DNA of 64,000 nucleotides from an uncultured virus (IMG/VR IMGVR_UViG_3300042894_003697) (lineage: Duplodnaviria > Heunggongvirae > Uroviricota > Caudoviricetes), in IMG/VR virus record IMGVR_UViG_3300042894_003697; one strand, 5' to 3'. Under the pieces are notes generated by a model. It searched no databases and was not told where the DNA came from. It saw only the letters and a program-made list of their open reading frames with translations. A program made the position numbers and the translations under genes. Within the stretch, counting starts at the first letter, position 1. Every line of letters begins with the position of its first letter. Below, in pieces: positions 3,298 through 49,607 of the stretch.

Positions 3298-3329
3298 ATT
3301 GTGTACCTCCAAAAGTATGGCTCGTAATA

Positions 3330-3335
3330 TATTTA
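3330..3335 (-). promoter_or_regulatory. Late-promoter-like TAAATA upstream of the core/protease/scaffold/capsid operon
   Basis: Matches the core of the T4 late promoter TATAAATA; the same motif recurs before structural genes and gp55 is encoded in the window. Confidence 0.6.
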
Positions 3336-3406
3336 CATATATTAGATAATATTGGTAGTTTTAAAGCAGAAAACTGGTAGTTTTTTGAATAATTGTTAAA
3401 CAATTA

Positions 3407-3628
3407 TTACAGACCAGGTGCTACAGGAGGAGGTGCGTATTGTTGACGCACTAGTTTTAATTTTTCTTTGTATTCATAACTACGCACATCATTCATTTGT
3501 CGTAGCTTGTTTAACTGACGCAGAGTCAGTCGAGTCTTTCTCAAATCGCCTAGTTTAAGTTGGCTGTTGTCCTGGCTTAGATCTTGATAAGCACCAGGAG
3601 ATTTTTCGTATATTTCGTTGAGAATCAT
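3407..3628 (-). CDS. Small head-module hypothetical protein (73 aa)
   Basis: ORF between portal and core genes; TATAAATA 5 nt upstream of its ATG. Confidence 0.75.
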   Translation of the reverse strand: MILNEIYEKSPGAYQDLSQDNSQLKLGDLRKTRLTLRQLNKLRQMNDVRSYEYKEKLKLVRQQYAPPPVAPGL

Positions 3629-3633
3629 ACCAG

Positions 3634-3641
3634 TATTTATA
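3634..3641 (-). promoter_or_regulatory. T4-type late promoter TATAAATA overlapping the portal stop codon
   Basis: Exact T4 late consensus on the minus strand. Confidence 0.65.
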
Positions 3642-9334: not shown

Positions 9335-9838
9335 ATGCTATATCAAGATCAAGTACGCAAAGACATATTACATTGGCTGGAAAACTTTGTTGAAAAGCCA
9401 CACCCTGCACTAGGCGGCTGGGCACCTTGCCCGTATGCACGTAGGGCCAGACTGGACAATGATTTCGAAATTAGACTGGGATTGGCGCCTATACATGATT
9501 TGATAAAAATCAGCAAGCACGGTCTTGGTGGTAAAAGTGTTATTATCATTGTGTACAAAGCTGATCAAGTATCACATGAATCGTTCAGCAACGATATTGA
9601 AATAGCCAACAGAGAATTTTTGTTGCCAAATAACCTGTTGGCACTGGAAGATCACCCTGATGATGTAGAAATGGTAAATGGAGTTTGCATGAATCAAGGC
9701 ACTTATGCATTGGCACTGGTGCAAAACCTTGATGATCTCAATGCCAAAGCCCACCAGATGGCCAACAAAGGATTCTATGACACGTGGCCAGAAGCATACT
9801 TAAAACCATTATTTAAACACAGGAAAGATCCACGATGA
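9335..9838 (+). CDS. DUF1415-like hypothetical protein
   Basis: WLENFVE...CPYA and EDHP motifs resemble the DUF1415 CPFA / FHP motifs. Confidence 0.5.
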   Translation: MLYQDQVRKDILHWLENFVEKPHPALGGWAPCPYARRARLDNDFEIRLGLAPIHDLIKISKHGLGGKSVIIIVYKADQVSHESFSNDIEIANREFLLPNNLLALEDHPDDVEMVNGVCMNQGTYALALVQNLDDLNAKAHQMANKGFYDTWPEAYLKPLFKHRKDPR

Positions 9839-10974
9839 CATATTCAGTATACCAACACTGGGACCCATTGAAAGTCTGTGTAGTAGGACGCAGCTATGCA
9901 CCTGAATTTTATTCTTGGATCACAGTGCCTCATGTGAGAACATTATTTGAAAAAATTGCTATCGAGACTGAGGAAGATTATCAAGCCATTATAAAAAAAC
10001 TACAAGAGTTTGGTGTAGAAGTACTGAGACCTAATTTGCCAACAGATGCGTTTGCAAACGGAAAATATGTCCCACCACCGATGTGTCCGAGAGATTATAT
10101 GGTGATGACTGGCGACAAATTTTACGAAAACTATAGTTTTGCTTTTAAAAAATCATACCAGAATGTCAAAGACTTGTCCTGGCCAGACTGTAGTTCAATG
10201 GAAGAGTTCGTATTGTTACCCAACAGTATACAACAAGAATGCAACATTAACCATTGGTTCAACGAATACCAAAAAATTTATTCCACATGTGATCATATTT
10301 TTGATCACATACGCCAACAAGGAAATACAATTAAGTCACACCATTATGACACAGACTTGTTAAACGGAGCACAAATATCACGCATTGGCAAAGATTTGTA
10401 TTTTGGAACAAACTCTTATGATCAAGACACAACCAATTATAAAAAATTTATTGACCAAGAATTTTTAAACACCAGAAATCACATTGTCAACACCGGCGGA
10501 CATGGTGATGGAACCTACTGTCCTGTATGCCCTGGATTAATCATAAGTCTTTATGATGTGCCCACTTACGCAAACACCTTCCCAGGATGGGAAGTAGTGT
10601 ATCTTCCTGGGCAGAGTTGGAACAAAGTACAACCATTTTTAAATCTTAAACGTAAAAACAAAGGCAAGTGGTGGATACCAGGTTTTGAACATGACCAAGA
10701 TGTAATTAATATTATTGAAAAATGGTTAGGACATTGGACTGGATATGTTGAAGAAACAGTGTTTGATGTCAACATGTTGATCATTGACCCTAAAAATGTT
10801 ATGGTGTTTAACTACAACAAACAAGTATTTGATGCATTGGATCGATATGGTATTACTCCGCATGTAGTTCCGTTTAGACACAGATATTTCTGGGATGGAG
10901 GAATACATTGTGTAACCAGTGATCTTCATAGAGAAGGTGTGATGCAAGATTACTTTCCAGGAAGGAATCAATGA
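9835..10974 (+). CDS. Amidinotransferase (glycine/inosamine-phosphate amidinotransferase, pentein fold)
   Basis: WDPLKVCVVG, GVEVLRP, CPRD, GHGDG (H-x-D), FDVNML and the catalytic Cys in GGIHCVT. Confidence 0.88.
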   Translation: MTYSVYQHWDPLKVCVVGRSYAPEFYSWITVPHVRTLFEKIAIETEEDYQAIIKKLQEFGVEVLRPNLPTDAFANGKYVPPPMCPRDYMVMTGDKFYENYSFAFKKSYQNVKDLSWPDCSSMEEFVLLPNSIQQECNINHWFNEYQKIYSTCDHIFDHIRQQGNTIKSHHYDTDLLNGAQISRIGKDLYFGTNSYDQDTTNYKKFIDQEFLNTRNHIVNTGGHGDGTYCPVCPGLIISLYDVPTYANTFPGWEVVYLPGQSWNKVQPFLNLKRKNKGKWWIPGFEHDQDVINIIEKWLGHWTGYVEETVFDVNMLIIDPKNVMVFNYNKQVFDALDRYGITPHVVPFRHRYFWDGGIHCVTSDLHREGVMQDYFPGRNQ

Positions 10975-11414
10975 CATATCAATTTGCCAGAATTGACCTC
11001 AGTAAAACTGAATATACACCTAGTGTACACTGGGAATATATCCAAGATCGCAGTGAAGATACATTAAAAAAATTAGATGATATCTACAGGACCTACACTA
11101 TTTACAAACACTTTGCTAGTGTAATGCCTATGTTTCACAGTAGATATTTGGATCCAATGGCAGATGTCATTGGCTACTACGATAACAACAAACTTGTGGC
11201 ATGGAGTTTGATCCGGCGTTTTGATAACCATAATGCCCTGTGCGATCAATTTGCATGGACATATCATCAACCTCGTTCAAGATTAGGAATTGAAACGATG
11301 AAAACAGAATGTGCTATCTACAAGGAGCGAGGATTTAAATACCTGTATCTTGAACAAGCACATCTGTACAAATCTGAAATTGATGGATTTGAAATAATAG
11401 GACCACTGGAGTAA
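10971..11414 (+). CDS. Aminoacyl-tRNA-protein transferase C-terminal-like (ATE1/Bpt, GNAT fold) protein
   Basis: YYDNNKLVAWS...FAW...SRLGIETMKTECAIYKERGFKYLYL...YK matches the ATE_C pattern (kLvA...slG...ei...g..ylYL...YK). Confidence 0.6.
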   Translation: MTYQFARIDLSKTEYTPSVHWEYIQDRSEDTLKKLDDIYRTYTIYKHFASVMPMFHSRYLDPMADVIGYYDNNKLVAWSLIRRFDNHNALCDQFAWTYHQPRSRLGIETMKTECAIYKERGFKYLYLEQAHLYKSEIDGFEIIGPLE

Positions 11415-11416
11415 CA

Positions 11417-11752
11417 ATGGATTTATACACAATTTGGGCAGACAAAGAGGGCGATATTTCTGACCTTGACTGGGTCAACGGAATGAAAAGTTTTTTTGAT
11501 CATTTGATTGCTGAAGGCCGAATGGAAAGCTATAGAATCACAAGATGCAAAATGGGATTCCGCAGCATTGCTAACATGCCCGAATGGATGATCATCATGG
11601 AATTTAAAGACATGGCTCAGATGGACATGGCATTCAAACGAGTAGCACCGCTCGAAGGCGAACTCGAAGAGAAACACAAATCGTTTAATCAATTTGTCAG
11701 TGGCAACATACAGCATGCGCTCTTCAGAGACTGGCCTGATCAAAATCTATGA
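11417..11752 (+). CDS. Small dimeric alpha/beta-barrel-like hypothetical protein
   Basis: 111 aa; GGAG SD; pattern YRITR.K.GF...EWMIIMEFKDMAQMD.AF is typical of ABM-like barrels (fold inferred). Confidence 0.5.
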   Translation: MDLYTIWADKEGDISDLDWVNGMKSFFDHLIAEGRMESYRITRCKMGFRSIANMPEWMIIMEFKDMAQMDMAFKRVAPLEGELEEKHKSFNQFVSGNIQHALFRDWPDQNL

Positions 11753-12534
11753 AATACACACTTTTTGCAGGTTGTTCATACACAGCCGGCGACGGATTTG
11801 AATTGAAAAAAACTGAACCGTCTTTGTGGGTTAATCAGGTATATCATAAATGTTTTTCGCACACTACCCAACTTAACGTGAGTCGAGGTGGCCGATCCAA
11901 TGCAGGTATTTTTCAAGACACAGTAAAAGTATTATTAACGTATCCGGTTGAATATGCCATAGTCGAATGGACCAGTATGCCGCGCTATGAGTTAGAATTA
12001 GGTTTTGAAACTTACACTACCAGACAATGTTTTATGCCAAATCTCAAATGCCATACCCATAACTTAAATGATATAAACTACACCAGTGCTTATTTGACTT
12101 CAATTTGCGAGAGGTTTACATCACTGGCACACGATTACTACGAAATATCAAATCTTATTGAGTATGTTAATACAATTGTTAATCTTGCACAATTAACAAA
12201 AACCAAAGTCTTTTTTATCAATGGATTGTGTCCTTGGGACAACAATTTTTTTATTAAAAAAGAATCTGTGCTTCCATCTGAATATACCACGTATACTCAA
12301 AAACTATTAAACACCAACAGTCGAGATGATACCGAAGTGTTTCAGTTATACAATACCATGCATGATAATTTTATTAATTTGGGTGGCATACACGAACTAC
12401 TATGGTTAAATTTATATAATTCGATGCTATCAAGCAAAATAGATGTAAACGATGATCTTGCTCATCCTGGCATTAACTCTAATAATCTTTATTTTGATTT
12501 ATTTTCTAAGCTATTAACCAAACAACTACTTTAA
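11749..12534 (+). CDS. SGNH/GDSL-like hydrolase or acyltransferase
   Basis: Block I-like AGCSYTAG, NVSRGGRSN, C-terminal DLAHP (D-x-x-H). Confidence 0.6.
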   Translation: MKYTLFAGCSYTAGDGFELKKTEPSLWVNQVYHKCFSHTTQLNVSRGGRSNAGIFQDTVKVLLTYPVEYAIVEWTSMPRYELELGFETYTTRQCFMPNLKCHTHNLNDINYTSAYLTSICERFTSLAHDYYEISNLIEYVNTIVNLAQLTKTKVFFINGLCPWDNNFFIKKESVLPSEYTTYTQKLLNTNSRDDTEVFQLYNTMHDNFINLGGIHELLWLNLYNSMLSSKIDVNDDLAHPGINSNNLYFDLFSKLLTKQLL

Positions 12535-12580
12535 GAACTTTGCGCTGCAAAGTTCTATTGATTTCACTTCGTTCATCAAT
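12534..12580. terminator. Two adjacent hairpins at the convergent junction (terminator or RNA 3' end)
   Basis: AGAACTTTGC-GCT-GCAAAGTTCT (10-bp perfect stem, 12534-12556) and ATTGAT...ATCAAT (12557-12580), followed by a T-rich run on the plus strand. Confidence 0.5.
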
Positions 12581-12939
12581 TTTGTTTTTCTTTAGTATTA
12601 TCTAGATTAACTGGTCACAATTCACCGTATGCACGGTGAACATGAAAAAGCATTATCTGAGTAGCCCAGTCATCTATCATAATGAGATTGCAGTTTCCTG
12701 CGCGGAGGCGGTTGACCGGTACCCCCTACTCAAGTTTCACATATCAACGGAACCCTAGTAACCCGACGATAAATCCAAGTTCTATGAGCACGGGTTGTAT
12801 CTTTTTCATCAGAGCCCGAACCATTTGTTGCCTTAAGTTAGCAATTGCCTTTGACACCCAAAGTTCTAGACCGGGTATTGCACCGTTCCTCGATGGGGCT
12901 GGACCAACCATCCAGCACAGAGTCAGTAAAGCTGCCTAT
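12534..12939 (-). ncRNA. Candidate large structured non-coding RNA of unknown class
   Basis: The only large gap between credible genes in the window; about 48% G+C by hand count over 12661-12900. Many stems, a GAAA tetraloop, and crossing long-range helices whose G-U pairs favour the minus strand. Confidence 0.65.
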
Positions 12940-13368
12940 CTAAATTTTATTTTTTATGTGACTACCATGTATGCGGCACACAATCTGTCCGTTGTAGTAG
13001 TCGTCTGATTCTAATACTCTATGATTGAATTGTTCTCTAGCTTCTACATAACTGCATTCTGCTTTTGATTTACAATAAAATAATATTTCTCTTGTGAAGT
13101 TGTCGGCGCCTTGCGCTAGAATGTCTTTGTTGAGTTGGTCGTTTGATCCATAATATAGTTGCCAGTCTGAGTCAATCTTGCTTCGAATTCGTTTTTTCTT
13201 TTTGTTGCCGTTCTTTAATTTTACTACTTTGTATGAGGTTTTACTAAATTTTGCTAATTTTTTGCCTATGTACTTGCGACCAGAAAGATTATTTGTAATC
13301 AAGTAAACAAACCCTACACAATCTTCTGGTAAAGTCTCAATTGGAGCATTTTGATATAGCCAGATCAT
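12940..13368 (-). CDS. Small stand-alone GIY-YIG nuclease-family protein
   Basis: GFVYLITN...RKYIGKK, YYGS, FTREIL, conserved Glu (YVEARE), YYN; Lys-rich insert; no appended DNA-binding domain. Confidence 0.85.
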   Translation of the reverse strand: MIWLYQNAPIETLPEDCVGFVYLITNNLSGRKYIGKKLAKFSKTSYKVVKLKNGNKKKKRIRSKIDSDWQLYYGSNDQLNKDILAQGADNFTREILFYCKSKAECSYVEAREQFNHRVLESDDYYNGQIVCRIHGSHIKNKI

Positions 13369-13428
13369 GTGTTGTGTGCGGGTTATCCTTGCTCTATAGT
13401 TATGCCTTGTTGTTGCCTGTTTGTGATT

Positions 13429-14274
13429 TTATGTTAGTTCTATTTCTCGTTGCCATTGTTGATCAAATGCTGTGCCCATACTGGTTTGCCCACACACTGC
13501 GGAACAGATAGGGTCCTGTGTAGGAATAGCATCAATATCTGTAATAAAGTCCTGTTGTCTTGTGCCTAACCAACAACAGGGTACCAAGTTGCCTTTTGCA
13601 TCAATAAATGCACTTTTTTCTCTAAGGGCGTAGCAATTTATTGCAGTTGATTGTGTTTGAATTGGTTGCCATCCAGTTGGGAATTGCAACGTTTCTGTAA
13701 ATGGACGTTTTGAAACTTTGGCACGAAACCAGCTGAACCCCATGTCTCTAGCCATTTGTTCGCATTTGTCGACCTGGTGTTGATTGTGTCTATACACCAA
13801 CATATCCCAGTGTGCAGAGCCGCCGGCCGAAACAAATGATTCAACGTTGGCCATTAGTTTATCCCAGTTTACATTTTTACGATATACGCCATTAGTGTCT
13901 GCCAGCCCGTCAATACTGAACACCACATAATCTTGCGGCTGAGTCATGAGTTGGGCTAGGCCGTGCCACCAGAATGTGCTTTGTATAGCGCCATTGGTAT
14001 TCATACCCAGTGTAATGTTGTTGTTGATAGACCTGAACCTATTGAATATGTCCAGCGTGTGTTTACCAGCAGCCGGATCTCCGTAGTTGCCGCACATAAA
14101 CATTTTGTCTAATTGGCGTATTTTATCTTCATTGATCACATTGAGAATTTGACTCATAGAAAGATGATGCTGACGATCTTTTCTAAAGTTTGTGTCAGTT
14201 TCTCTAGCACACAACGGGCATGCGGCCTGGCATACGTCCGTGGGTTCGAGATGTAGAACTTTTAAGTCACGCAA
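13429..14274 (-). CDS. Radical SAM protein with SPASM/twitch-like C-terminus
   Basis: CQAACPLC (CxxxCxxC), GNYGDP, NTNG, FSIDG, C-terminal C...IDAKGNLVPCC. Start is probably TTG 14274 or 14280, overlapping the gp46 stop. Confidence 0.85.
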   Translation of the reverse strand: MRDLKVLHLEPTDVCQAACPLCARETDTNFRKDRQHHLSMSQILNVINEDKIRQLDKMFMCGNYGDPAAGKHTLDIFNRFRSINNNITLGMNTNGAIQSTFWWHGLAQLMTQPQDYVVFSIDGLADTNGVYRKNVNWDKLMANVESFVSAGGSAHWDMLVYRHNQHQVDKCEQMARDMGFSWFRAKVSKRPFTETLQFPTGWQPIQTQSTAINCYALREKSAFIDAKGNLVPCCWLGTRQQDFITDIDAIPTQDPICSAVCGQTSMGTAFDQQWQREIELT

Positions 14275-16030
14275 GATCAATGTCCGTGTTGTAGCTAGTA
14301 AAGCCGTTTTCTTTGATAACTTTGAGAATGTTCTCCACACGTCCGGCCAGTTCATCGCGATGTGAAACAAGCCAGATTGACTTGTGGCGTTCACGACTCA
14401 TTTTCTTCAGCAAAGCCAGTGCATTCTCTACACCTTGTGTGTCTAAACCGCTGTCGATCATTTCATCAACAAACAACAAATTGATAGGCTGGTATAAACT
14501 TTCCCAGACATCACGGAATGCCCAGCTCATACTCAATATCAATCTGTTGCGTTCGCCACGCGATAAATTATCAAAATCTAATTCACGCCCTAGTTCTTCA
14601 ATGCTGACTGTTAAATCGTTTTGGAATAACACTGTGTGCGGTAATCCAATACGATCTAGATAGTGTGTGAGCCTTATATTAAGATAACTTAAATTTTGCT
14701 CAATGATTTTTTTGCGAATAAAACTGTCTTTGCTGGTCAATAGTTTAAGCAAGAAATCTTGATGCTCTTGCAATCTTGTGAGTTCATTGAGTGTTTCATA
14801 ATCAACTGTTTGCAGTGCCTGTCCTTGCATATCTTCAATTTGCTCACCGTATGGATCTACTTCTGCTGACTTGTCTGCAATTTGTTTTTGTAGATTTTCT
14901 AGTGTGGCACGGTGCTGAATGGCATCCTCTTCTTTGTCATAGAACATTTTAGGAGGCTTGCCTAACACACCTAATCCTTTGTGTGTGGCTTCCAGCTGCA
15001 TGAGATCATGTGTGTACATTTCGGCATTGGCATGAGCTGTGGCCAGATCTTGTTGTTTACTGGCCAGTACTTCTTCATGTTTTTCGTCATGCAGATCTTG
15101 CCCGCAGGCATGACAAGTATGTTTTTCCAATGCAGCTACGTCTTTGACTATCTTGGCAATTGTTTTTTCTTCTCGACCTAAATCAAGTTTAATTCGACTG
15201 ATAGAGCCGGCTAGGTCATTGATATCTTTGCGTTTTTGATCCCAAAGTTTGTGATCCTTGTGCGCTTGTATTTCAACATCAATATCAATTTCTTTTAACG
15301 CAGTTAGTGCGTTGGTAAGATTGTTAATATCTTCTGTGTGTTTGTTAGACCATAAAGTCTGGCGGCGTTTTATGGCTTCAATTTGTTCTTCGATTCTTTT
15401 GTTAGCTTCGGTAACTGCACGAATTCTAAATTCTTCTTGAGTTATTGCATCTTTAGTTTCTCGATTAAGTTCTTTAATCCTGTCAGCTCGCTCGCTGAGC
15501 ATGGTAATGCCTAACAACTGTTCAATGATGGTGCGCTGGTCGTTGGCCTTTAGACTCAGGAACGGTTCTGTGTAAGTGTTAAGTGCCAGGATATGTTTGA
15601 ACATATCGTGACTTAGACCTAGAGTTTGTTCAATGGCATCCTGTGTTTCTCTGCTGTCGCCCTGTGCTTCGTCAGTGACCATTTGCTCTTGATTGTTCAC
15701 AAAGAATCTTAACACATTGGGTTTGCGACCTCGTTCAATTTTATAATCTCGGCCATTGCAAACAAAGTCTAAACTGACCAACATGTTCTTCCCATTGGTT
15801 TTGTTTACTAAATTATCTTTGCGAATGTTTGAAAGAGCATTGCCATACAATGCATAACTTAAAGCATTGATGATAGTGGTCTTACCTGTGCCGTTACGGC
15901 TTCCATCTCCGCCTAGATCTAGATTTTCGCCTAGCACCAGTGTGAGATCACTACGATCAAAGTCAATGGCCTGTGTGGCATTGCCCACACTCATGAAATT
16001 TCGGACAGTAAGATTTTTAATGTGTATCAA
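14267..16030 (-). CDS. gp46: Recombination endonuclease ATPase subunit (gp46, SbcC/Rad50 family)
   Basis: Walker A NGTGKTT, zinc hook CHACG, signature LSRGE, Walker B LLFVDE, H-loop VSH. Confidence 0.95.
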   Translation of the reverse strand: MIHIKNLTVRNFMSVGNATQAIDFDRSDLTLVLGENLDLGGDGSRNGTGKTTIINALSYALYGNALSNIRKDNLVNKTNGKNMLVSLDFVCNGRDYKIERGRKPNVLRFFVNNQEQMVTDEAQGDSRETQDAIEQTLGLSHDMFKHILALNTYTEPFLSLKANDQRTIIEQLLGITMLSERADRIKELNRETKDAITQEEFRIRAVTEANKRIEEQIEAIKRRQTLWSNKHTEDINNLTNALTALKEIDIDVEIQAHKDHKLWDQKRKDINDLAGSISRIKLDLGREEKTIAKIVKDVAALEKHTCHACGQDLHDEKHEEVLASKQQDLATAHANAEMYTHDLMQLEATHKGLGVLGKPPKMFYDKEEDAIQHRATLENLQKQIADKSAEVDPYGEQIEDMQGQALQTVDYETLNELTRLQEHQDFLLKLLTSKDSFIRKKIIEQNLSYLNIRLTHYLDRIGLPHTVLFQNDLTVSIEELGRELDFDNLSRGERNRLILSMSWAFRDVWESLYQPINLLFVDEMIDSGLDTQGVENALALLKKMSRERHKSIWLVSHRDELAGRVENILKVIKENGFTSYNTDIDLA

Positions 16031-19229: not shown

Positions 19230-20669
19230 ATGGCCGGACTAACACCAGAAGAACAAGCATTTTATATAGAGGACCTTGCACGAGTAACTGAGTCTATTGC
19301 TTTTCTGCAACAAAGGATTGCAGAAAATCAAACGGCTATCAACGAAGCACAGGTTCAAATCAATGCGGCCCAACAGACTATTGCAATTGATCAAGCTAAC
19401 TTAAATAATCCAGATGTTGATCCTGCCTTCTTGCCGGATATTCGTGAAAACATCGTTGAAGCACAAGCAAGTATCAATCAAAATCAAATTGTTATTCAAC
19501 AATCAACCAACACTATTGCAGTAGACCAAAATCAACTTGGTGAACTGGAATTATTTCAGGAACGAGATCAAGAAGCATTAACAGGAACTGCATCACCTAG
19601 TCCGGTTTCTACCACTGTAAATGTCCAATCAGTGACCACGGCAGTGGGGGTACCGGTCAGTCAAATAGCTCAATCTGCTGGTGCAGTACCAAACAACATT
19701 GCCAGGCCAGCAGCATACAACAGCAATGGACAGTTAAATCCAGGCTATGTATTGGATGAAAACAACAATCCTGTGTTTGTGGGTGTCAACACCGCGGCCA
19801 CACCTGTGTCAACTTCGCAGCTGTCAGCGGCACAACAACAGGCCACACTTAGACTGGCTCAACAACAACAGACTATTGCTGCCCAACAACGCACAGTAAA
19901 CTATGGAGATTGGCGAGTCAAGCTAAGTCTGGCGCCCAATGCCAAATATTTGTACAATTCTAGCAATCCTGGGATACTGCAACCATTGTCCAGCAACAAA
20001 GGCACAGGCGGTGTTATATTTCCCTACACTCCGTCAATAGATACTGCGTATCGAGCCAACTATAGCAACTATGATTTAACACATTCGAACTATCGAGGAT
20101 ATTTTTATCAAAACAGCTATGTGGATGCAGTAAGCATGCGAGCTACGTTTACTGCTCAGAACACCAATGAAGCAAACTATCTGCTGGCAGTAATACATTT
20201 TTTCCGTTCAGTGACAAAAATGTTTTACGGGGCCAATGACAGTCTACGAGGATCACCGCCACCATTGGTATTTTTAACCGGACTAGGGTCTTATCAGTTT
20301 GCACAACATCCCTGTGTGGTAAGTAGTTTTGCTTATAATTTACCATCAGATGTAGACTATATCCGGGCACTGAGCAACAGCAATCTTGGAACCAATCAAC
20401 AAAATCAACAAATAAATCAAAGCACAATTCCCACAAACGGGTCAACCAGCAGCGATAGATTGGCCAATAATGGGCTACCAGCTGGTGCCACTGCCACACC
20501 AAATCCTGCGCCAAACACTGCAGATTTATTAAACTCACCTACCTATGTGCCAACTAAATTAGAAATGACAATAACTTTACTGCCTATACAAAGTCGTCAA
20601 CAAGTAAGTCAAAATTTTAACATGCAAGATTTTGCCAGTGGATCATTGTTAAATGGAGGATACTGGTAA
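19230..20669 (+). CDS. Baseplate tail-tube cap/initiator-like structural protein with N-terminal Gln-rich coiled coil
   Basis: DWRVKLSL, GVIFPYTP, THSNY, FFRSVTKMFYG, PPPLVFLTG; tube-like domain directly before the LysM wedge gene. Start moved to ATG 19230. Confidence 0.6.
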   Translation: MAGLTPEEQAFYIEDLARVTESIAFLQQRIAENQTAINEAQVQINAAQQTIAIDQANLNNPDVDPAFLPDIRENIVEAQASINQNQIVIQQSTNTIAVDQNQLGELELFQERDQEALTGTASPSPVSTTVNVQSVTTAVGVPVSQIAQSAGAVPNNIARPAAYNSNGQLNPGYVLDENNNPVFVGVNTAATPVSTSQLSAAQQQATLRLAQQQQTIAAQQRTVNYGDWRVKLSLAPNAKYLYNSSNPGILQPLSSNKGTGGVIFPYTPSIDTAYRANYSNYDLTHSNYRGYFYQNSYVDAVSMRATFTAQNTNEANYLLAVIHFFRSVTKMFYGANDSLRGSPPPLVFLTGLGSYQFAQHPCVVSSFAYNLPSDVDYIRALSNSNLGTNQQNQQINQSTIPTNGSTSSDRLANNGLPAGATATPNPAPNTADLLNSPTYVPTKLEMTITLLPIQSRQQVSQNFNMQDFASGSLLNGGYW

Positions 20670-20968
20670 TGGCTTCATACGATTCAACTAGTCCTTATTA
20701 TCTCACTGGGTATAGTCAGTTTTTCTTAGATACTATGATCAATCGTCCCATACCCAAACAACCAGATGATATATTGTTCAAACTAAATTTGACTTATCAA
20801 TACCGACCAGATTTACTAGCATTTGATTTGTACAAAGATTCACGATTGTGGTGGGTGTTTTATCAAAGAAACCCCAATACATTACAGGCGCCACCATTGG
20901 ATTTTGCCGCTGGTGTTGCTATATATTTGCCAAAACTTGCTACACTAAAGTCAGCATTGGGATTCTAA
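20669..20968 (+). CDS. gp53: Baseplate wedge LysM-like protein (gp53-like)
   Basis: YRPDLLAFDLY.DSRLWWVF...N...IYLP motif. Confidence 0.8.
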   Translation: MASYDSTSPYYLTGYSQFFLDTMINRPIPKQPDDILFKLNLTYQYRPDLLAFDLYKDSRLWWVFYQRNPNTLQAPPLDFAAGVAIYLPKLATLKSALGF

Positions 20969-20969
20969 C

Positions 20970-22421
20970 ATGTCGCAACCACCTATCGCCAGTTCTGGAG
21001 TTATAGCAAGTGTTCAGCAGACTGCCAAAGATGACGGTGCTTTAAATCAAGACCCCAATCAACCTGGTACTGTGCTGACATTAGACGGCAGAATTATACC
21101 AGCTGGAACTCCTACTGCTACTCCTGCTGCTTCAAATACCACGGTGGTCAATGGGCAAACAATATCAGCCACTGATGAAGCAGGAACAAATGCTCCTTTA
21201 AAATCTATAACCCAGACGCAGGCTACTCCTCCGTACAACCCTAATTTGACTGCTCCAGTTGGTACACTGGGCAGTGGAACATTTGGCATTTTAAATCAAG
21301 ACGGTAGTCAAGCAGGACCTAACAGTGGTGTTGGGCAATTTTTTGCTGCAGGGCAACTTCCTGGAGCAGGGTCTGGATCAGGGGTCAACAATTTGGCTAA
21401 CCAAAGCGATGACAATCCGGGGGCTACCAATGCTCCTGCAGGAACACAACAGGTGTTAACACAAACATTTGCTGGACAAATCGTCACACAACAAAATCAA
21501 TTGGATCGATATGCCAGTTATACCTATGCACTGTCGTGGTACTTGCTAACACCAGAACAATATAGTATTTTTCAAACAGGATCAAAAAATTCATCGTTGT
21601 GGATGTTATTGATGCAGAGCGGCGGTGCTGCGGCTACTCCTACACAGTCTTTTGAAAATAGTGAACAAACATCTTCTAGCATGGGAGGACGTAGCCAATT
21701 TTTTCCCTATGATTTCTACATGGATGATTTAGAAATTACTACATTAGTTCCATTGGGAGGTACAGGGTTGTGTCATAGTGCCACTGATATAAAATTTAAA
21801 ATTGTTGAGCCCAATGGCATTACTTTAATCAATAACTTGTACAACGCAGTAACTACGTTGTACAAACAACCTCAGACAACCTCTACCGCAACAACAGTCA
21901 ATACCAATGCTACCACGTCTATTCAAAATCCCAATTACCCAATGGCACATTACTGTATGGTCATACATTTTTATGGATATGACCAACAAGGCAATTTGGT
22001 TGCACCTGCTACAGGTTCTTATGGCCCCAATGGCGGCCGTGCCGCAACTGATCCTACAGCAGTGATAGAAAAATATTATCCATTTATTATAACAAATTTA
22101 AAATATAGAATGGCCAATAAACAAATTGAATATGAATTAACCGGCAAGCCACAAGCACAGAATTATAATCTTGGTACTGATCGCGGCAGTATCCCGTTTA
22201 ACTTTAATCTAGCAGGAACCACAGTGGGACAATTGCTGTCAGGTACTGGAATCAGCACTCAAACCAATACCGCAGATCCCGGTGCCAGAATAACCAACCC
22301 TACTCCGCCATCAGCAGGTGCAGGCAGAGGATTTGTCAATCCTCCATTGGTAGGTGATACCAATCCTTCCTATGTCAACAGCACCAATGGTAGCGAATCT
22401 GTTATAGGAATTGATTTTTAA
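20970..22421 (+). CDS. Baseplate hub-like protein, N-terminal part
   Basis: NQLDRYASYTYALS, DFYMDDLEI, FKIVEPNG; position between gp53 and gp5. Confidence 0.55.
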   Translation: MSQPPIASSGVIASVQQTAKDDGALNQDPNQPGTVLTLDGRIIPAGTPTATPAASNTTVVNGQTISATDEAGTNAPLKSITQTQATPPYNPNLTAPVGTLGSGTFGILNQDGSQAGPNSGVGQFFAAGQLPGAGSGSGVNNLANQSDDNPGATNAPAGTQQVLTQTFAGQIVTQQNQLDRYASYTYALSWYLLTPEQYSIFQTGSKNSSLWMLLMQSGGAAATPTQSFENSEQTSSSMGGRSQFFPYDFYMDDLEITTLVPLGGTGLCHSATDIKFKIVEPNGITLINNLYNAVTTLYKQPQTTSTATTVNTNATTSIQNPNYPMAHYCMVIHFYGYDQQGNLVAPATGSYGPNGGRAATDPTAVIEKYYPFIITNLKYRMANKQIEYELTGKPQAQNYNLGTDRGSIPFNFNLAGTTVGQLLSGTGISTQTNTADPGARITNPTPPSAGAGRGFVNPPLVGDTNPSYVNSTNGSESVIGIDF

Positions 22422-31300: not shown

Positions 31301-31804
31301 ACAGGAACAGTGCCGTTACCATTGGCACCCACCATTGATGATCTCACAACTGCATACGTTGGACTACAAGATTACAAAATGATATCAGATAATATGATAT
31401 TAAATTCTGTGCAGTTTCAGCCATTGTTTGGCAGCAAGGCCGCACCAGCTTTGCGAGCCACAATAAAAGTCATACAATCTACACAAAGCACTGCCAGCAC
31501 CAGTGAAATAAAAAATCTTGTTGTGGCCAATATGAACGCATATTTTGACATAGCAGTTTGGGATTTTGGACAAACATTTTATTTTTCAGAACTGGCTGCA
31601 TACATACATCAACAGATAGGCGACATAGTTAGTTCTGTTGTGCTGGTTCCTTTAAATCCACAAAAGAGTTTTGGCGATTTATACGAAATCAGATGTGCAC
31701 CTAATCAAATTTTTGTGAATGGTGCCACTGTTAACGACATACAGGTCATAACTGCATTGACCAGTACAAACTTACAAACTGCTCCTGGCAGCGGAGTAAT
31801 TTAA
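28391..31804 (+). CDS. gp6: Baseplate wedge subunit (gp6-like)
   Basis: DFETLRKSF, FNDYIESSE, ENYLDTAERRDSV..LA..VSY.P, FGDGVF, QNRMVNGEDY. TAAATA at 28367-28372 upstream. Confidence 0.88.
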   Translation: MATTTRQTVIFGVEDWKRIYQTYREADFQSYDFETLRKSFVDYLRLYYPETFNDYIESSEFIALLDVMAFMGQSLAFRSDLNTRENYLDTAERRDSVVKLANLVSYTPLRNTESSGYLKVFSVKTTENVTDYNGVNLANITVNWADPSNLNWQEQFTSIINSALVNTQRFGKPGNDQVILGVDTQEYTVNLVPGFLPVIPYTATIDGINMPFEAVSATSSGQTYIYEPPPLPNGQFNMLFRNDQLGFSSANTGFFFYFKQGVLQNQDFNLPERISNRQVNINIEGINNTDVWLYQLDNVGNITSYWQFVQSVYAAAVEQLTPGTRDIYSITSATNDQIILNFGDGVFSTIPVGTFRTYVRSSNGLTYIINPEEMQSVSIPISYVSRTNQIETITFTCGITSPVTNAQARETLEQIKQRAPAQYYTQNRMVNGEDYNNFPFTQYNSILKSKALNRASIGTSRYLDLVDGTGKYSSTNIFAADGALYEANTLPAFQFSWLTIPDISDVLYNQINPLLIKAGLQQFYYANFTRPDLSVLNYTWRQSTVITNETTGYFQNAAGTPVPIGTYASNNAKYITEGSLVKFVPPTGYYFNSDNQLVAGIPGLAGDKLVIWASPTAVYLSGTASGFGNLPSGVGPVVLNNFVPTGAIPTQVIPVFVTDIPVSVQQNIVNQIYLNQNFGIGYNNITATWYVITANNLATNAAFSLTNQQSTAGTNSDASWLIQVTTTASGLANYTVVSRSLDYYFGSVIDTRFFFYTNQPIYDSRTGTVIRDFVNVLKVNSQPDSNFPLAGDNVLTIIDQPVLSDGLVDDFQVLVSFATTPGDLIPINPDFFNDIVAPNVNANHKLVFLQQTVDFDNLQRYLLVASGTVNSDYATLGAIELAIAQYNLGQVFYAYQDQVFYTLAVNSAGDTILTVNSTYIAYTGRQSLYFQYRHNSPLTNRIDPGSTNIIDIYIVTNSYYTAYTNWLRDSTGTVPLPLAPTIDDLTTAYVGLQDYKMISDNMILNSVQFQPLFGSKAAPALRATIKVIQSTQSTASTSEIKNLVVANMNAYFDIAVWDFGQTFYFSELAAYIHQQIGDIVSSVVLVPLNPQKSFGDLYEIRCAPNQIFVNGATVNDIQVITALTSTNLQTAPGSGVI

Positions 31805-34800
31805 TGGCCACAGTTCGCACAGTTGATTTTTTACCAGAAATATTTCAAACACCGGTTAACAAGCAATTTTTAGCAGCCACTCTTGACCAACTGGTTCAAG
31901 AACCTAAATTTAAAAAATCACAAGGGTTTATAGGACAACGAGTTGGACCCGGGGTCAATGCCAATGACCAGTATGTGATTGAACCTACAAAAAGTCGCAA
32001 TGATTATCAGTTAGAACCTGGCGTGGTTCAAATTGATCCAGTTGATGCTAAAAAAATTGTTGATGTCATAACTTATCCAGGCATAACTGATGCATTGACT
32101 CTGCAAGGTGGAATCACCAACAATGCAGATTATCTTTATACCAGTGATTACTACACCTGGGATCCTTTTGTTGATTTTGATAAATTTGTAAACTACGCAC
32201 AATATTTTTGGTTGCCCAATGGACCAATGGCAGTTGATGTGAGTGCCACTGGAGTACCTGTTACCGACAGTTTCACTGTGACTCGTGCAAATGGAGTCTA
32301 TACTTTTAGTGGGTATGCAGGCAACAATCCAGTACTAACTTTGGTCAAGGGCGGCAACTATACATTTAATGTGGCACAAAATACCACTGAAACAATCACA
32401 TATCGTGTGACCAATAGTGGCACAAGTGCATATGTGATCAATCAAGAATCAAATCCCAGTCTGACTTTGGTTCGAGGAAATACATACTATTTTAATCTGT
32501 CATTGACTGGCGCTTTTCCTTTTTTTATTAAAACTATTGCCAGCCTGGGCCCGGTCAATGTCTATTCCAATGGAGTCATAAACAACGGAGCCAGTGACGG
32601 ACAAATTATATTCACAGTGCCCCAAGATGCTCCAGATGTATTATTTTATTGCAATCCAGTGGAGTTTAATCTACGTGGGCAATTTAACATAATTGACGCA
32701 ACTGCAGGAACTGGCAATGATTTCTGGATTCAAACTGATCCTGGAATCAATGGACGTATCCCTGCAACTCCTAACATCAGTAGTAGAACTATACTTGGAG
32801 TAACCAATAATGGTATTGATCTCGGAACTATTACATTTGATGTACCCCTCAGTGACGCACAAAGTTTTTATTATAATTTACCTGCTATCCCACTCAACAA
32901 CGGCACAGTTGATCTTATAACAACAACCTTACAATTCAATCAAGTCAATAATCAATTTCTTGATGCATTTTACACAGCCAATCCCAATGGGATAGATGGC
33001 ATAACAAATTTAAATGGTCGCACCATTGTTTTTACTGCAACTCAAGGTTGGGAAATAACAAGTTTTTTTGATCCGTTGGTCACTGGTCAAAACGGACAAC
33101 CAGGCAGCTTTGATAGTTTGCCGTTTGATAACACTACTTTTATTACCAATCCAGAAGAACAATACAGTGTCTGGAGAATTCAGTATCAAACTGATTCGGG
33201 TGGCCAGGTCTATCTGTCATTGACCAGTGTTGCAACTGTGCCAGAATTAGATAAATTTACTATTTTGTTTGGCAACCAATGGGCCAGCACACAGTGGTAT
33301 AAAGATGTCGATGGGTATTTTGAACAAATTCCATTGTTGACTGCAGCACGTAGTGTACTATGGTATCAAGATGGCACGGATCCTAATATTTTTGGTCAAA
33401 TTCGATTAATTGATCAAACGGGTGTTTCTACATTGGATATTGATACTATCATTGGACAAAAAACCTATACAAGTCCCAATGGAGTAACATTCACCAATGG
33501 TATGAAAGTAATATTCCGTGGTACTACGGCTCCGGCCAGTTATTCAAATAATGAATATTATATAGAAGGAGTTGGGACTGCAATTCAATTGTTGCCAGTA
33601 ACCAATTTTGTAACACCGGAACCATATGTTGAAGCACAATATGCATTGATCAACAGTGACTCTGCATTGAACGGCCCGTTGACTCCGGACTATTTGACAA
33701 TAAATCGAGCCAGTGGAGATTTAAACCCATGGTCTCGTAGCAATCGTTGGGTTCAAATTGATGTTATCAATGCGTCGGCTGCTTACAACAATACTGTTCC
33801 TGTGTTAGATAACAATTTTCGTGCTCGCCGACCTATATTAGAATTCCGTGCTGGAACTCGATTGTTTAATTTTGGAACACAAGGCAAACCACCGGTTAAC
33901 ATTATTGATTTCACACAAACAGATGCACTAAGAACAGTCAACGGCAGCATTGGTTTTGGCACTGATGGTTATGAGTTAGTCAGCGGTGACAGAGTTGTTT
34001 TTGCTGCTGATATAGATCCTGTTGTTCGGCGAACAATATATCAGGTTAGTTTTATTATTCCTGATACCGTGCCACCATTGATTTCACAGCCATTGATTAG
34101 TTTAATTCCTGCTGCTGATAGTCCAGCATTGCTTGATCAAAGTGTGTTGTGTTTAAATGGTAACACGTTACAGGGTCAAAGTTTCAGATATGACGGTGTT
34201 AATTGGGCGGAAGAACAACAAAAACTCAATGTCAATCAACCTCCTCAATTTGACATTTATGATGCTGATGGAATAAGTTTTGGTGACAGAGTCAAATACT
34301 CCAGTTCAAACTTTCTAGGCAGTTCATTGTTCAGTTATGCAGTGGGATCTGGTCCGTTAGATTTATATTTAGGATTTCCGTTAACCTATCTGAGTTTGAC
34401 CAACATTGGTGATATTGTTTTTGATAACAATTTCTATGCTGATTCATTCACCTACACATTGAATACTGTTGGGCAGACTGTGCCATTAAGTTCCGGATTT
34501 GTAAGGCAGTACAGTACCCGATTGCTGTACGACCGAGAAATTGGATGGCAAAATGGAATAACCCAAAGTCAAATTAGACAACAATTTCAATTTGTCTATG
34601 ATGGATCGCCTTCACTACTGGATATTGCAGTCAGTACTGGCACAGTGGTTCCTGCAGTACAAGTTTTTATCAATGCTACTTTTCAAGAATCTTACAACTA
34701 TAGAGTCTCTATAGGAACCAACACAACCACAATCACATGGTTGACCGAGTATGCACCTGGAGACTTGATTGAAATTCAAGTGCTCAGTGATCAGGTCAGT

Positions 34801-37800
34801 ACAAATGGATTTTTCCAAGTTCCTATGAATTTAGAAAACAATCCATTAAACGGCAACAGCACACAATTTACGCTGGGCACTATTCGCAATCATTACAGTA
34901 CCATTGCTCAAAATCTTATTGGCTTGCAAGGGCCAGTCATTGGTGCAAACAATACCAGAGACCTGGGCAACTTGATCCCTTACGGTTTACAGATACTGCA
35001 ACAAAGTTCGCCGCTCACGTTGGCCGGCTATTTTATGCGAGATCCCAACTATGATGTATTTGCTAGTTTGGATTTTAACAGCCGAGAATACATTAAATTT
35101 AAATCTTTATTGTTAAACACTGTGATCAGTAACGATTACGGAACAATGACCATTCCAGAAATATTAGATTCTGCAATTGCACAAATCACTGTTGGCAGAA
35201 CAAATTTAAGTCCGTTCTATTGGAGTGACATGTTGCCAACTGGCACCACGTTTATTTCAAACTCCACAACAGTATCACAAATAACAACATCAGTATTCAA
35301 CACTTCACAAACTTACAATTTTACTGAATCTAACTACTTGGGATTATTAGTATACCTCAATGATGTGTTATTGGTGCGCAACTATGATTACATAGTGAGT
35401 GTTGATAGTCCTGTGTTGACCATAACAGTACCATTGAGCGTAGGCGATGTTGTCACAATCAATGAATACAGTGATACTGTTGGAAATTTTGTACCCAACA
35501 CACCAACCAAATTGGGCTTGTATCCTAAATTCAAGCCTGAAATCTTTTATAATCCTGACTATTTAAATCCTGTTCTGGTTATACAAGGACATGATGGTAG
35601 TATAACAATAAGTTTTGGTGATTTCAGAGATGAAATCTTGTTAGAATTTGAAAAACGAATTTATGACAATCTTAAAAATGATGGTAATCCAGTACCGTTG
35701 GTTGCCGAAGATGTTGTGCCAGGATTTTTTAGAACCACGGATTACACACAGGCGCAGATAACACAAATACTCAGTGAAAGTTTTTTAACTTGGGTAGGCC
35801 AAAACAAAGTAGACTATAAAACACAAAACTATATTGCAACAAACCCGTTTACCTACAACTACAGTGTGTCTGGTAACAAACTCAACGAAGAACCGTTGTT
35901 GGGCGCCTGGCGAGGTATCTATCGTTATTTTTACGATACCACAAGTCCTAATCTAACACCATGGGAAATGCTGGGATTCTCAGAGCAACCTGCCTGGTGG
36001 ACTGCACGTTATGGTCCTGTGCCGTACACCAGTGATAACCTGGTATTATGGGGCGATCTTGAAGCCGGATACATAGCAGATCCTATTGCACCTTATATTG
36101 ATCCTCGTTATGTACGTCCTGGATTGACCACAGTGATCCCGGTGGACTCGCAAGGTGAATTACTAAGTCCATTACAAAGCGTAGTGGGATTGTATAATCC
36201 CAATGCTTGGCGTAAAAGTTGGGTAGTCGGCGATGGCGGTCCAACTGAAGCTTCATGGTGGGCTAGTTCAAGTTATCCGTTTGCAGTCATGCGATTGCTA
36301 GCGTTAACACGCCCGGCTGAATTTTTTAGTTTGTTTGTGGACAGAGACCTGTATCGCTACAATGCGGAATTTGAACAATATCTCTACAATGATCGTTATA
36401 GAATCAATGCCAATGAAATTCAAGTTTATGGCAACGGAGTCAGCAAGGCCAGTTACATAAATTGGATTATTGATTATAATCAACAACTTGGTATTAATTC
36501 ATCTTCGGCACTAACTAGAGATTTGGCCAATCTTGATGTGAGACTTTGTTATAGAATGGCTGCGTTTACAGACAAACAGTATGCTAATATCTATTTGGAA
36601 AAGTCTAGTCCAGACAGCCAAAATTCTAGTTTGTTGTTGCCACCGGAAAGTTGGAATTTATTACTATATGCCAATCAACCTTTTGGTGAGATTGTGTACA
36701 GCTCGCTAATAATTCAACAATTAGAATCAGGGTTCACTGTGTATGGATACAGTAATGTTCAACCATATTTTCCAATTGTGGCCAGTGCTACCAATGGAAC
36801 AACACAAACCATCAGTGCCGGTGGCACTGATGTAATAGTTCCTGCACAGTATACCAATAATATAGTTAATATACCTTATGGATACAATTTCTCTAACGCT
36901 ACAATTGTTGTGGATTTTATTTTAAGTTATGGTGTATTTTTAACCAGCCAAGGGTTGGTATTTGACGGAGTACAAAATGGTTACACCCTTAACTGGGCAC
37001 AGATGGCTCAAGAATTTTTATACTGGAGCCAACAAGGCTGGGCTCCAGGCACAATTATTAATTTGAATCCTGGTGCCAGTAAAATAACTGCATACAAGCC
37101 CGGAGCAGTTGTGGCAGCAGTCACAAGTTTGACTCCAGAAAATCAGTTGACTGATCAAAACAAACAGTCGATCAAATCGCGCGATTTGATCGTACAACGA
37201 TACGGAGATACATTTACCATATCATCTGCCACGAATCAAACTATTTCATATCTGGATTTAAAATTTACCAATTATGAAAATATGGCTGTGTTGGACAATG
37301 TTAGTATTTTTAACGATTTAATATATAATCCCATAACCGCAGAACGACAAAGTCGTATGGCCTGGAAGGCCAGTATCAGCAGTGACTGGGATGGCACTTT
37401 AAATGCGCAGGGATTTGTACTAAATCAAAACAATGTTGATCAATGGCAACCTAGTGTAAAATACACCAAGGGTGAAATAGTAATTTATAAAAACACCTAT
37501 TGGAGTGCGTTGAATATAATTCAACCTAGTACAACTTTTGACTATGCCAATTGGGTCAAGAGTGATTATGCTATGATCGCTCAAGGTCTGTTGCCTAACA
37601 TTGCCAACAAAGCTGATCAACAAGCCAATAGCTATAATATCTATGATGCCAATTTGGCCAGTGACAATGATTTACTGGCATTTGGTCTCACTGGATTTAG
37701 ACCACGTCAATACATGGTTGACCTTGATCTTGATGATGTTAGTCAAATACAGCTTTATCAAAACTTTATTGCCAGTAAAGGTACTAGATTAAGTGCAGAA

Positions 37801-49224: not shown

Positions 49225-49246
49225 CATCCAAAGTCTAGTATTACCA

Positions 49247-49266
49247 AAAGGGCCTTCGGGCCCTTT
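49247..49266 (+). terminator. Intrinsic terminator with C(UUCG)G tetraloop ending the structural operon
   Basis: AAAGGGCC-TTCG-GGCCCTTT perfect 8-bp stem; UUCG loops are typical of T4-like terminators. Confidence 0.85.
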
Positions 49267-49292
49267 ACTATTGACCAAATTTAATGTATAAT
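49264..49292 (+). promoter_or_regulatory. Sigma70-like promoter TTTACT-17nt-TATAAT at the start of the glycan-modification island
   Basis: Perfect -10 box, 17-nt spacer, ATG 6 nt downstream. Confidence 0.65.
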
Positions 49293-49298
49293 TAACAC

Positions 49299-49607
49299 AT
49301 GAATACTGATGAATTAATTGCACACAGTCGAGCCCGTTTTGATCATGCGGTTGCAAGACGGGTACTAAAAGAAAAATACCAAGCCAAAATGACGTTTGCT
49401 TATGCTGGAGGTCTTTGGCAGGCTGGCCCCGAGCTACTGTGCTTGTTGGCTGCGTGTCCAGATCGTAGCTCTGCTGTAATTTTGGACCTGTATGAAACGC
49501 CAATACAAATCAATGTGGATGAGCTGGAACTTGCGGCAGCACAACGATGGCAGGAACAGATGAACGCATGGTTGGTAGAGTACACAGAAATTAATAAAAA
49601 TAGATGA
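49299..49607 (+). CDS. Hypothetical protein
   Basis: 102-aa ORF, ATGA-coupled to the next gene. Confidence 0.7.
   Translation: MNTDELIAHSRARFDHAVARRVLKEKYQAKMTFAYAGGLWQAGPELLCLLAACPDRSSAVILDLYETPIQINVDELELAAAQRWQEQMNAWLVEYTEINKNR

Follow-up and report, generated by a model that had tools for sequence, protein, structure and literature searches.

The window analysed here is a stretch of 64,000 nucleotides from an uncultured virus (IMG/VR record IMGVR_UViG_3300042894_003697), a T4-like phage with genes for a portal protein (gp20), a prohead protease, baseplate proteins and gp46/gp47-like recombination nuclease subunits. Our subject is a gene of about 400 nt at 12534..12936 on the minus strand of this window, which lies between a plus-strand gene ending at 12534 and a minus-strand unit of gp47-like, gp46-like, radical SAM and GIY-YIG genes. 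The last of these, directly upstream of the ~400-nt gene, encodes a GIY-YIG nuclease of 142 aa (12940..13368, minus strand; PF19835, E 1.8e-32). The ~400-nt gene is that of a conserved folded non-coding RNA and not of a protein. Its limits, from a semi-conserved AGGCAGC/UGAC start to a terminal hairpin, are set by how far conservation extends in the alignments of 30 and of 126 homologues.

The G+C content is raised in this region, at 0.455-0.50 across 12600-12899 against 0.28-0.36 in the flanks, as had been noticed in an earlier model-made reading of the letters (the sequence-only reading). That reading had also taken the region for the only large non-coding gap of the window, which it is not: the list of open reading frames (ORFs) leaves other gaps of 270-380 nt, and gaps of 300-380 nt free of ORFs of at least 110 aa occur at 49224-49604, 3312-3637 and 20669-20970. 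Homologues were first collected from 94 IMG/VR loci around relatives of two flanking proteins. The stretch was present in about 55 of these at 72-92% nucleotide identity, and the adjoining radical SAM protein was merely 57-75% identical across loci. An invariant 21-mer, used as a probe, brought in at least 120 further viral loci, and an nhmmer profile found the element in 191 of the 217 loci gathered by then, with a core match to the equivalents of 12605-12935. An exact copy of the 21-mer in a Pseudarthrobacter genome (L217) was set aside as a chance hit with no profile match, and nhmmer confirmed none of the 121 loci returned by a degenerate 17-mer scan of genome contigs. The RNA-bearing T4-like phages come from lake metagenomes, and the RNA was single-copy in all five large phage records (four of them 93-100% complete, at 320-347 kb; three with terminal repeats). 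Two alignments served for the tests, one of 30 distinct homologues (A1) and one of 126 distinct homologues for mutual information (MI); a third (A2) joined the 3′ domains of the two phage types and the bacterial copies that are described below.

Folding energy by itself fails to show structure beyond chance, with z-scores of the minimum free energy of -1.44 for the minus strand and -0.86 for the plus strand; comparison of homologues does show it. RNAalifold predicted 83 pairs on A1, 34 of them with compensatory double changes. A model of 101 pairs, one pseudoknot included, was built from MI among the 126 homologues with average product correction. Laid on A1, this model had 90.1% of alignment cells paired as against 83.1% in shuffles, and 46 pairs changed on both sides as against 28.6; neither value was reached in any of 500 shuffles. 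Its covariation score was 0.239, and at most 0.073 with partners slid by 1-3 columns. G-U and U-G pairs that can form only on the minus strand were frequent in the covarying helices, for example in 11 and in 13 of the 30 sequences at single pairs. The sequence-only reading had argued from such pairs for a structured minus-strand RNA instead of DNA palindromes, and had looked to homologues behind this GIY-YIG family for compensatory changes; both points are borne out.

The stretch is non-coding, since codon periodicity is absent and ORFs are broken in most homologues. In the 108-codon plus-strand ORF, the conservation of which as a protein had been named as a finding that would speak against an RNA, column entropy was alike at the three codon positions (0.51, 0.52 and 0.53). 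The frame was open across the aligned region in merely 11 of the 126 homologues, so that it is not conserved as a protein, and length differences were not multiples of three in 91 of them.

Over the whole window no Rfam family was matched at gathering thresholds, and a search of 12400-13500 with E up to 10 gave nothing but one spurious snoRNA match at E = 10. Hence, there was no match in that interval to RNase P RNA, 6S, SRP, GOLLD, ROOL, HEARO, OLE, raiA, T-box or C4 antisense RNA, and for the same classes nothing relevant appeared in the homologous loci scanned. ARAGORN found no tRNA or tmRNA gene in the window, nor did Rfam match either. The view that the RNA is not a tRNA, tmRNA, RNase P RNA or intron is thus upheld. 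The wider view that it belongs to no recognisable class holds for the window itself, which lacks any Rfam match up to E = 10, but not for its 3′ half, which is homologous to RNAs bearing the Rfam motif RF01718. Several resemblances were dropped, being not conserved across homologues or lacking Rfam support: a hammerhead-like or box C/D-like look of the 3′ hairpin H13, a T-box-like GGUACC run, and CsrA-like GGA sites. A blastn search of 12500-13000 against GenBank phages gave no match, the nearest virus record compared leaves this region uncovered, and our literature search found no description of this RNA. The searched part of a catalogue of 10,006 viral candidate RNAs (Fremin 2023, PMC10690425) held no match either, and the catalogue as a whole may still list the RNA. 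Relatives of the RNA, and of its GIY-YIG neighbour, are overlapped by contigs from four lake RNA libraries of four studies, a result to be read with possible DNA carry-over and with the lower conservation of the uncovered flanks in mind.

The link to RF01718 (Polynucleobacter-1) came from about 34 GIY-YIG-anchored loci that matched the profile in its 3′ half only. We call these copies type 2, and the subtype of the window type 1. RF01718 was found in all ten type-2 loci scanned, at 70-118 bits against a gathering score of 37 bits, and its match begins directly after the GIY-YIG stop codon. Among type-1 copies, it was matched neither in the window (at gathering, or with E up to 10 in 12400-13500), nor in 20 + 10 further loci, nor in any of the five large phage records. 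The type-2 RNA occupies the same genomic slot, behind an orthologous GIY-YIG gene that is 70-80% identical to that of the window. Thus, the two types have the upstream gene and the 3′ domain in common, and differ in their 5′ domains, that of the window, unlike that of type 2, being without any match to the RF01718 model. The common 3′ domain comprises AACCGCC, ACUC with a heptamer, a hairpin, AUCU with the same heptamer, the motif of H13 and a terminator hairpin.

In Weinberg et al. 2010 (Genome Biol 11:R31, PMC2864571), RF01718 has 16 members from Burkholderiales and from fresh water or estuary, with one RefSeq hit, and is classed as a probable RNA and a probable cis-regulator. The phage copies, unlike a cis-regulator of the kind proposed there, have no downstream gene to regulate. 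Among the papers searched, no other names the motif. The RF01718 RNAs and the RNA of the window are both of freshwater origin.

When we sampled 151 genomes from one bacterial family, RF01718 exceeded the cut-off in a single one; among 151 genomes of the genus of that positive genome it did so in 17, a sporadic distribution, and four of these had two copies. These bacterial copies (L419 and 17 further loci) continue for ~330 nt into a phage-like 3′ architecture, with an AACCGCC hairpin region, ACUC and a heptamer, a hairpin, AAUCU and the same heptamer, an H13-like UGAGCG..AGCGAA and a terminator hairpin, in this order. Because type-2 and bacterial copies extend into the same 3′ architecture, before which the 141-nt Rfam model stops, RF01718 seems to make up the 5′ third of a longer RNA, of which the window appears to hold a variant with a different 5′ domain. 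The window has every element of the extended Polynucleobacter-1-like family, for which we take the shared 3′ domain as the definition. In the loci L419-L438 of these small freshwater bacteria, a DUF6641 gene (PF20346) diverges upstream, and the RNA is followed by variable cargo and then by a Phage_integrase protein of 188-198 aa, so that these RNAs look as if they sit on integrative islands. There, the RNA follows no gene on its own strand, and no nuclease gene precedes it. Taken together, the ~400-nt RNA consists of a lineage-specific, swappable 5′ domain and a 3′ domain common to lytic giant phages and bacterial islands.

The 3′ domain contains a pair of identical heptamers. In the window, heptamer A (12658-12652) and heptamer B (12603-12597) flank the hairpin H12 at a distance of 55 nt, which is 53-68 nt in homologues. 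The twins covary by identity and not by complementarity (MI 0.93 and 0.91 bits, with no standard pairs), and A equals B in 124 of the 126 distinct type-1 RNAs. The commonest type-1 words were GGAUAAU (39), AGAUGAU (35), AGAUAAU (24, the word of the window), GGAUGAU (15) and AGAUGAA (7), besides others. Type-2 copies keep the twin rule and have a new word, GCAUAAU, among them. The bacterial words were AGCGAAA, AGAGAAA, GGAGAAA, AACAAAA and AUCAAAA, with exact twins in 14 of 18 copies; two RNA copies in one bacterial genome bear different words. In all, we counted 18 exact twin words and a near-exact one, AUGAAG, shared by both segments of the divergent copy L143. Position 6 is A in all 18 exact words, and this near-twin is the single exception seen.

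A strict pattern, ACTC plus any seven bases, then 30-75 nt, then ATCT plus the same seven bases, was found in 235 of 296 RNA-related loci, the remainder of which includes truncated or RNA-less loci, and in none of 121 unrelated control loci totalling 0.95 Mb. On a tree built without the heptamer columns, at least 23 changes fell on the first variable position, and the twins took the same direction in all of 12 independent pairs (p ~5e-4). For the second position there were 15 changes, with the same direction in 7-8 of 8 comparisons. The two positions vary independently of one another, and covariation with the heptamers was seen at no other column of the RNA. A pair of heptamers that keeps its identity while switching fast is not ordinary base-pair covariation. 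As regards a template-jump reading, there was no reverse transcriptase among the Pfam hits of the 44 window ORFs. A translational bypass cassette of the T4 gene 60 type was rejected: no ORF enters or leaves the region and frames are broken in most homologues. The twin words do often read as a sense codon followed by a stop ((A/G)GA U(A/G)A), yet the landing copy also precedes a stop.

The structure model is given here from 5′ to 3′, with all elements on the minus strand. The 5′ part is a three-way junction (12852..12925) of Hx, H1 and H2/H3, seen in the covariation of 12924:12853 and of pairs in H2 and H3. Hx pairs UGAC (12925-12922) with GUCA (12855-12852), two of its four pairs being changed on both sides, and encloses H1 and H2. 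H1 is a GCUGGA/UCCAGC hairpin (12898-12916; 5/6 pairs changed on both sides). The helix H2 (12894-12897 with 12857-12860; 3/4) carries the hairpin H3 (12868-12889; 5/6), the loop of which is UGNNAUAC. Next follows H4 (12828..12844), a UUGCU/GGCAA hairpin with 98% of cells paired, double changes at two of five pairs and a 7-nt loop, AACUUAA, that is near-invariant (27 of 30 sequences). In four divergent type-1 copies (L097, L115, L147 and L173), three to four tandem 10-nt units close to CACACUUAGG stand ~40-60 nt upstream of the start of the RNA; the unit resembles the loop and 3′ strand of H4 (ACUUAAGGCA), and the main type-1 group has a single AGGCAAC in that place. H5 is a long-range helix (12819-12823 with 12612-12616) and weakly informative, with one of five pairs changed on both sides. 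Two hairpins follow, H6 (12791-12818; 3/4 pairs changed on both sides) and the long H7 (12752-12789), with a loop (12767-12774) that supplies the 5′ strand of the pseudoknot PK1.

In the type-1 alignments, a block of 57 nt at 12703..12759 (ACUAGGGUUCCGUUGAUAUGUGAAnCUUGAGUAGGGGGUACCGGUCAACCGCCUCCG) is near-invariant, and its AACCGCC is invariant in type-1, type-2 and bacterial copies in A2. Within 12683..12732 lies a second three-way junction, of P9, H10 and H11. P9 pairs UGAG (12732-12729) with CUCA (12686-12683) and closes H10 and H11; its pair 12732:12683 switches from U-A to A-U (MI 0.99, 99% standard pairs), and the helix reads GAAG/CUUC in L143 and GAGC/GCUC, AGAAU/GUUCU or GCAAC/GUUGU in type-2 copies. 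H10 (12704-12726) is the hairpin GGGGG..CGG-UCAA-CCG..CCUCC, and H11 (12690-12701) a variable GNRA hairpin, GCAG-GAAA-CUGC, with double changes at 3/3 pairs. Four type-2 copies (L256, L264, L246 and L263) have in place of H11 an insertion of ~45-50 nt with tandem units close to UAUAGUCAAC or UAUAGAC. The 3′ strand of PK1 (12672..12679) pairs with the loop of H7; 85% of cells are paired, four of eight pairs are changed on both sides, and 12767:12679, 12768:12678 and 12772:12674 covary.

The remaining elements belong to the region of the twins. An invariant ACUC (12659-12662) precedes heptamer A, AGAUAAU (12652-12658), in the segment 12652..12662. Between the twins stands H12 (12621..12640), the hairpin UUCACCGU-GCAU-ACGGUGAA, with 99.6% of cells paired and 2/8 pairs changed on both sides; type-2 and bacterial copies have different hairpins at this place. 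The second anchor, AAUCU (12604-12608; AUCU conserved), precedes heptamer B, AGAUAAU (12597-12603). In H13 (12557..12580) the outer stem covaries (5/6 pairs changed on both sides) and the inner motif GA-(G/A)C-loop-G(C/U)-GA is conserved, as UGAGCG-NN-AGCGAAA in most copies; the motif is also present in type-2 copies and in 17 of 18 bacterial ones. The terminal hairpin H14 (12534..12556), the stem of which covaries between homologues, was called terminator-like on the plus strand; as a two-way terminator-like hairpin it is common to the RNA and to the convergent plus-strand gene ending at 12534. The counts for H14 in the model test are low because it was mis-registered in A1.

Four of these hairpins, H1, H10, H11 and H12, had been picked out in the sequence-only reading, and all four lie where it had put them. 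Of the three long-range helices that it had seen crossing each other, the first (12774-12766 with 12680-12672) is PK1 and makes at least one real pseudoknot. The other two, taken alone, had 69.9% of cells paired, which equals the shuffle mean, and double changes at one of 14 pairs; they are not conserved, and P9 takes the place of the second.

The genes around the RNA were surveyed in 127 loci with at least 500 nt of upstream sequence. A GIY-YIG gene ends directly upstream of the RNA in 96 of them (at an observed 7-175 nt, in an accepted band of -20 to 200 nt). In 21 others a further gene intervenes, and the GIY-YIG gene ends 0.8-1.04 kb upstream; 2 loci have a partial or distant one, and 8 have none. 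In the reverse search, which started from the GIY-YIG protein, the RNA was found downstream in 70 of 74 loci with room for it. The protein of the window matches phrog_447 from end to end and consists of no more than a catalytic domain, residues 3-129 of 142 being covered by PF19835. Four of the eight loci without GIY-YIG (L160, L121, L173 and L056) have directly upstream of the RNA a gene for a 167-172-aa protein that starts M.S.SKAKGNSFER. By eye this protein resembles a PD-(D/E)XK/Hjc-type nuclease, and looks like a second nuclease family in the same slot. The downstream neighbour is nearly always the convergent end of an operon of baseplate-hub and DUF6614 genes. In the window, the operon converging on the RNA spans 9335-12534 on the plus strand, and has among its members the DUF6614 protein (11417-11752, PF20319), a protein with a weak arginine-deiminase-fold match (9835-10974) and an unassigned one of 261 aa; the RNA is also present without it, in L160 and L173.

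The RNA is unchanged behind different upstream genes. Free-standing homing endonucleases typically sit beside conserved targets, as the T4 seg and mob genes do. We read the RNA as an independent gene with different nuclease genes for neighbours; the arrangement is not evidence of an obligate nuclease-RNA pair.

As for function, we tentatively favour a trans-acting recognition RNA of mobile elements, in which the twin words form a specificity module that discriminates between related elements; we would put this at somewhat short of even. The RNA would be transcribed as the tail of the leftward gp47-gp46-radical SAM-GIY-YIG unit, as suggested by its start within ~10-25 nt of the upstream stop codon, and the transcript would end at the two conserved hairpins. 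It would then act in trans as a folded scaffold that presents, on either side of a hairpin, two identical purine-rich and apparently unpaired heptamers. The partner would be of one kind for both heptamers: a complementary nucleic acid that is present or met twice, or else one factor with two equal sites. A new word would mean a new specificity. Such an RNA would most likely serve in conflicts between related mobile elements, or in telling them apart, whether the opponents are two phages or a phage and an island. A narrower form of the proposal, a programmable recognition RNA whose scaffold carries two identical 7-nt guides that read the same word twice, seems to us doubtful. Such guides could read an inverted repeat on both of its strands, or a core that two partners of DNA or RNA must share; their users could be catalytic-only enzymes (the 142-aa GIY-YIG protein, the short tyrosine recombinases of the islands), or they could set exclusion specificity between competing elements.

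A number of observations weigh against a recognition role of the twins. No complementary site of at least 6 bases recurs at a fixed place within the RNA, and the flanking DNA, 2-9 kb per locus, showed no enrichment of the word or of its complement. Most of the phage variation is A/G at two positions, and a partner with U tolerates both, so plain pairing alone does not force the twins to be identical. The twins also lie close together, and recombination can move both at once, so that independent co-changes are fewer than the tree count; the 18 different exact words nevertheless still require repeated joint change. In 4 of the 18 bacterial copies, the twins differ by 1-2 mismatches. DUF6641 and Phage_integrase, the two families tested, were each found in 0 of 5 phage records, so that neither of them is a protein partner shared by phages and islands. 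Finally, a hairpin closing around heptamer A (P_A) did no better than chance in a best-stem test (3.64 against 3.73 in shuffles). By eye, a register recurs there (CUGC/GCAG, CUAC/GUAG, UGCU/GGCA); around heptamer B no matching stem was found.

The twins could alternatively mark the ends of a product. The RNA would then be a precursor, and its own activity or that of a nuclease would cleave it at the twin sites, with release of a hairpin RNA of ~55-60 nt (H12 and its flanks) as the active molecule, which we consider unlikely. Its logic resembles that of repeat-flanked RNA antitoxins (ToxI) and of the P1 C4 and P4 CI immunity RNAs, which lie between direct repeats. It would account for identical words with fixed anchors (ACUC, AUCU) around a conserved hairpin in all three groups, and it fits an RNA carried by competing mobile elements, with two copies of different words in one genome. 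However, the enclosed C4 and CI RNAs complement their flanking repeats, and this RNA contains no such complement. There are no repeats in tandem units, the Rfam families of such RNAs are unmatched, and the large conserved scaffold upstream would be left unexplained.

We give slightly less weight to the possibility that the RNA lends target recognition to adjoining DNA enzymes that are catalytic only, with the twins reading two equal DNA words of 7 nt; these might be the strands of an inverted repeat, or the overlap that two recombination sites have in common. The GIY-YIG protein, a bare catalytic domain directly upstream in 96 of 127 loci and followed by the RNA in 70 of 74, invites this explanation, as do the short Phage_integrase protein of the islands and the fast, joint switching of the heptamers. 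But a gene stands between nuclease and RNA in 21 loci, GIY-YIG is absent in 8, and some loci have an unrelated nuclease-like gene instead. In bacteria, variable cargo parts the RNA from the integrase, and the phages lack both integrase and DUF6641, so no partner protein is common to all contexts. Varied nucleases beside one conserved gene are what free-standing homing endonucleases produce, and no candidate target was found in the flanks. Judged as an RNA-guided nuclease or recombinase of the OMEGA or bridge-RNA kind, the system has neighbouring enzymes that differ or are absent, and no target was found in the flanks.

It is improbable that the stretch is a cis-acting 3′ untranslated region (UTR), which stabilises or terminates the upstream nuclease mRNA and has no function of its own. 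In every phage context the RNA begins right after the upstream stop codon, and of the two hairpins at its end one is terminator-like, as a 3′ UTR would have it. However, ~340 near-invariant nucleotides with a pseudoknot and junctions go far beyond the needs of a 3′ end, the RNA does not vary with the gene upstream, no same-strand gene precedes it in bacteria, and the twin heptamers would have no explanation. A self-splicing intron or other large ribozyme travelling with a homing endonuclease gene is very improbable. The classical group I picture is indeed that of a T4-like phage in which a conserved pseudoknotted RNA adjoins a GIY-YIG gene, and here both are more conserved than their neighbours. 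But with E up to 10 the intron and ribozyme families of Rfam gave no match, exons are lacking (flanks vary from locus to locus, and the next gene downstream is convergent), the order of helices is unlike the P3-P9 scheme, and the RNA also occurs without the nuclease. We give least credence to a constraint on DNA (a replication origin, packaging or recombination site) or to an encoded small protein, which H12 as a perfect 8-4-8 palindrome, the twins as direct repeats in DNA and the nearby integrases in bacteria might suggest, but which is countered by the one-strand-only G-U/U-G pairs, the absence of codon periodicity, the broken ORFs and the phages without integrase.

Among known RNAs, the RNA of the window can be set beside three further groups. 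GOLLD, ROOL, OLE, raiA and HEARO are likewise long, highly conserved multi-junction RNAs that were found by comparison, often phage-associated and from lakes. The RNA of the window matches none of these Rfam families in sequence or structure and is smaller, at ~400 nt; we know of no description of twin co-varying heptamers for any of them. In the P1 C4, P4 CI and type III antitoxin RNAs, short direct repeats flank a structured RNA and set element-specific specificity. There, the repeats complement the enclosed RNA or are whole tandem units; the RNA of the window has no such complement, no Rfam match to these families, and no toxin or target gene identified with it. The T4 td group I intron with I-TevI also places, in a T4-like phage, a GIY-YIG gene next to a pseudoknotted RNA that is conserved. 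The RNA of the window differs in that it lacks exons, has a helix order unlike that of group I, has no Rfam hit and also occurs without the nuclease.

The kinship described above means that a catalogued but unstudied Rfam motif is the front third, as it appears, of a much longer RNA, common to giant lytic phages and to integrative islands of freshwater bacteria, whose 5′ domain can be swapped as a module. The heptamer pair is suggestive of a specificity code. Were the words to prove guides or immunity determinants, conflicts of phage with host or of phage with phage would have a new recognition system based on RNA; otherwise, the RNA is still a good structural candidate, with ~400 nt, many invariant positions and a deep alignment.

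Two further sets of observations concern the hosts and the rest of the window. Full type-1 copies are carried by two contigs of 148 and 183 kb (L215 and L216) in a metagenome-assembled genome (MAG) labelled Haliscomenobacter. These are probably phage contigs binned with a bacterial MAG, and at best a weak hint at the host; similarly, one assembly of the RF01718-bearing bacterial genus includes a type-2 phage contig, which is a host hint only. In the window, the ORF of the radical SAM gene (13429-14394, minus strand), listed with a GTG start, overlaps the listed gp46-like ORF (14267-16030) by 128 nt (14267-14394, minus strand), and the true start of the radical SAM gene probably lies further downstream than the listed GTG. 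Far from the RNA, the plus strand of 31804-46125 is occupied by a single ORF of 4773 aa.

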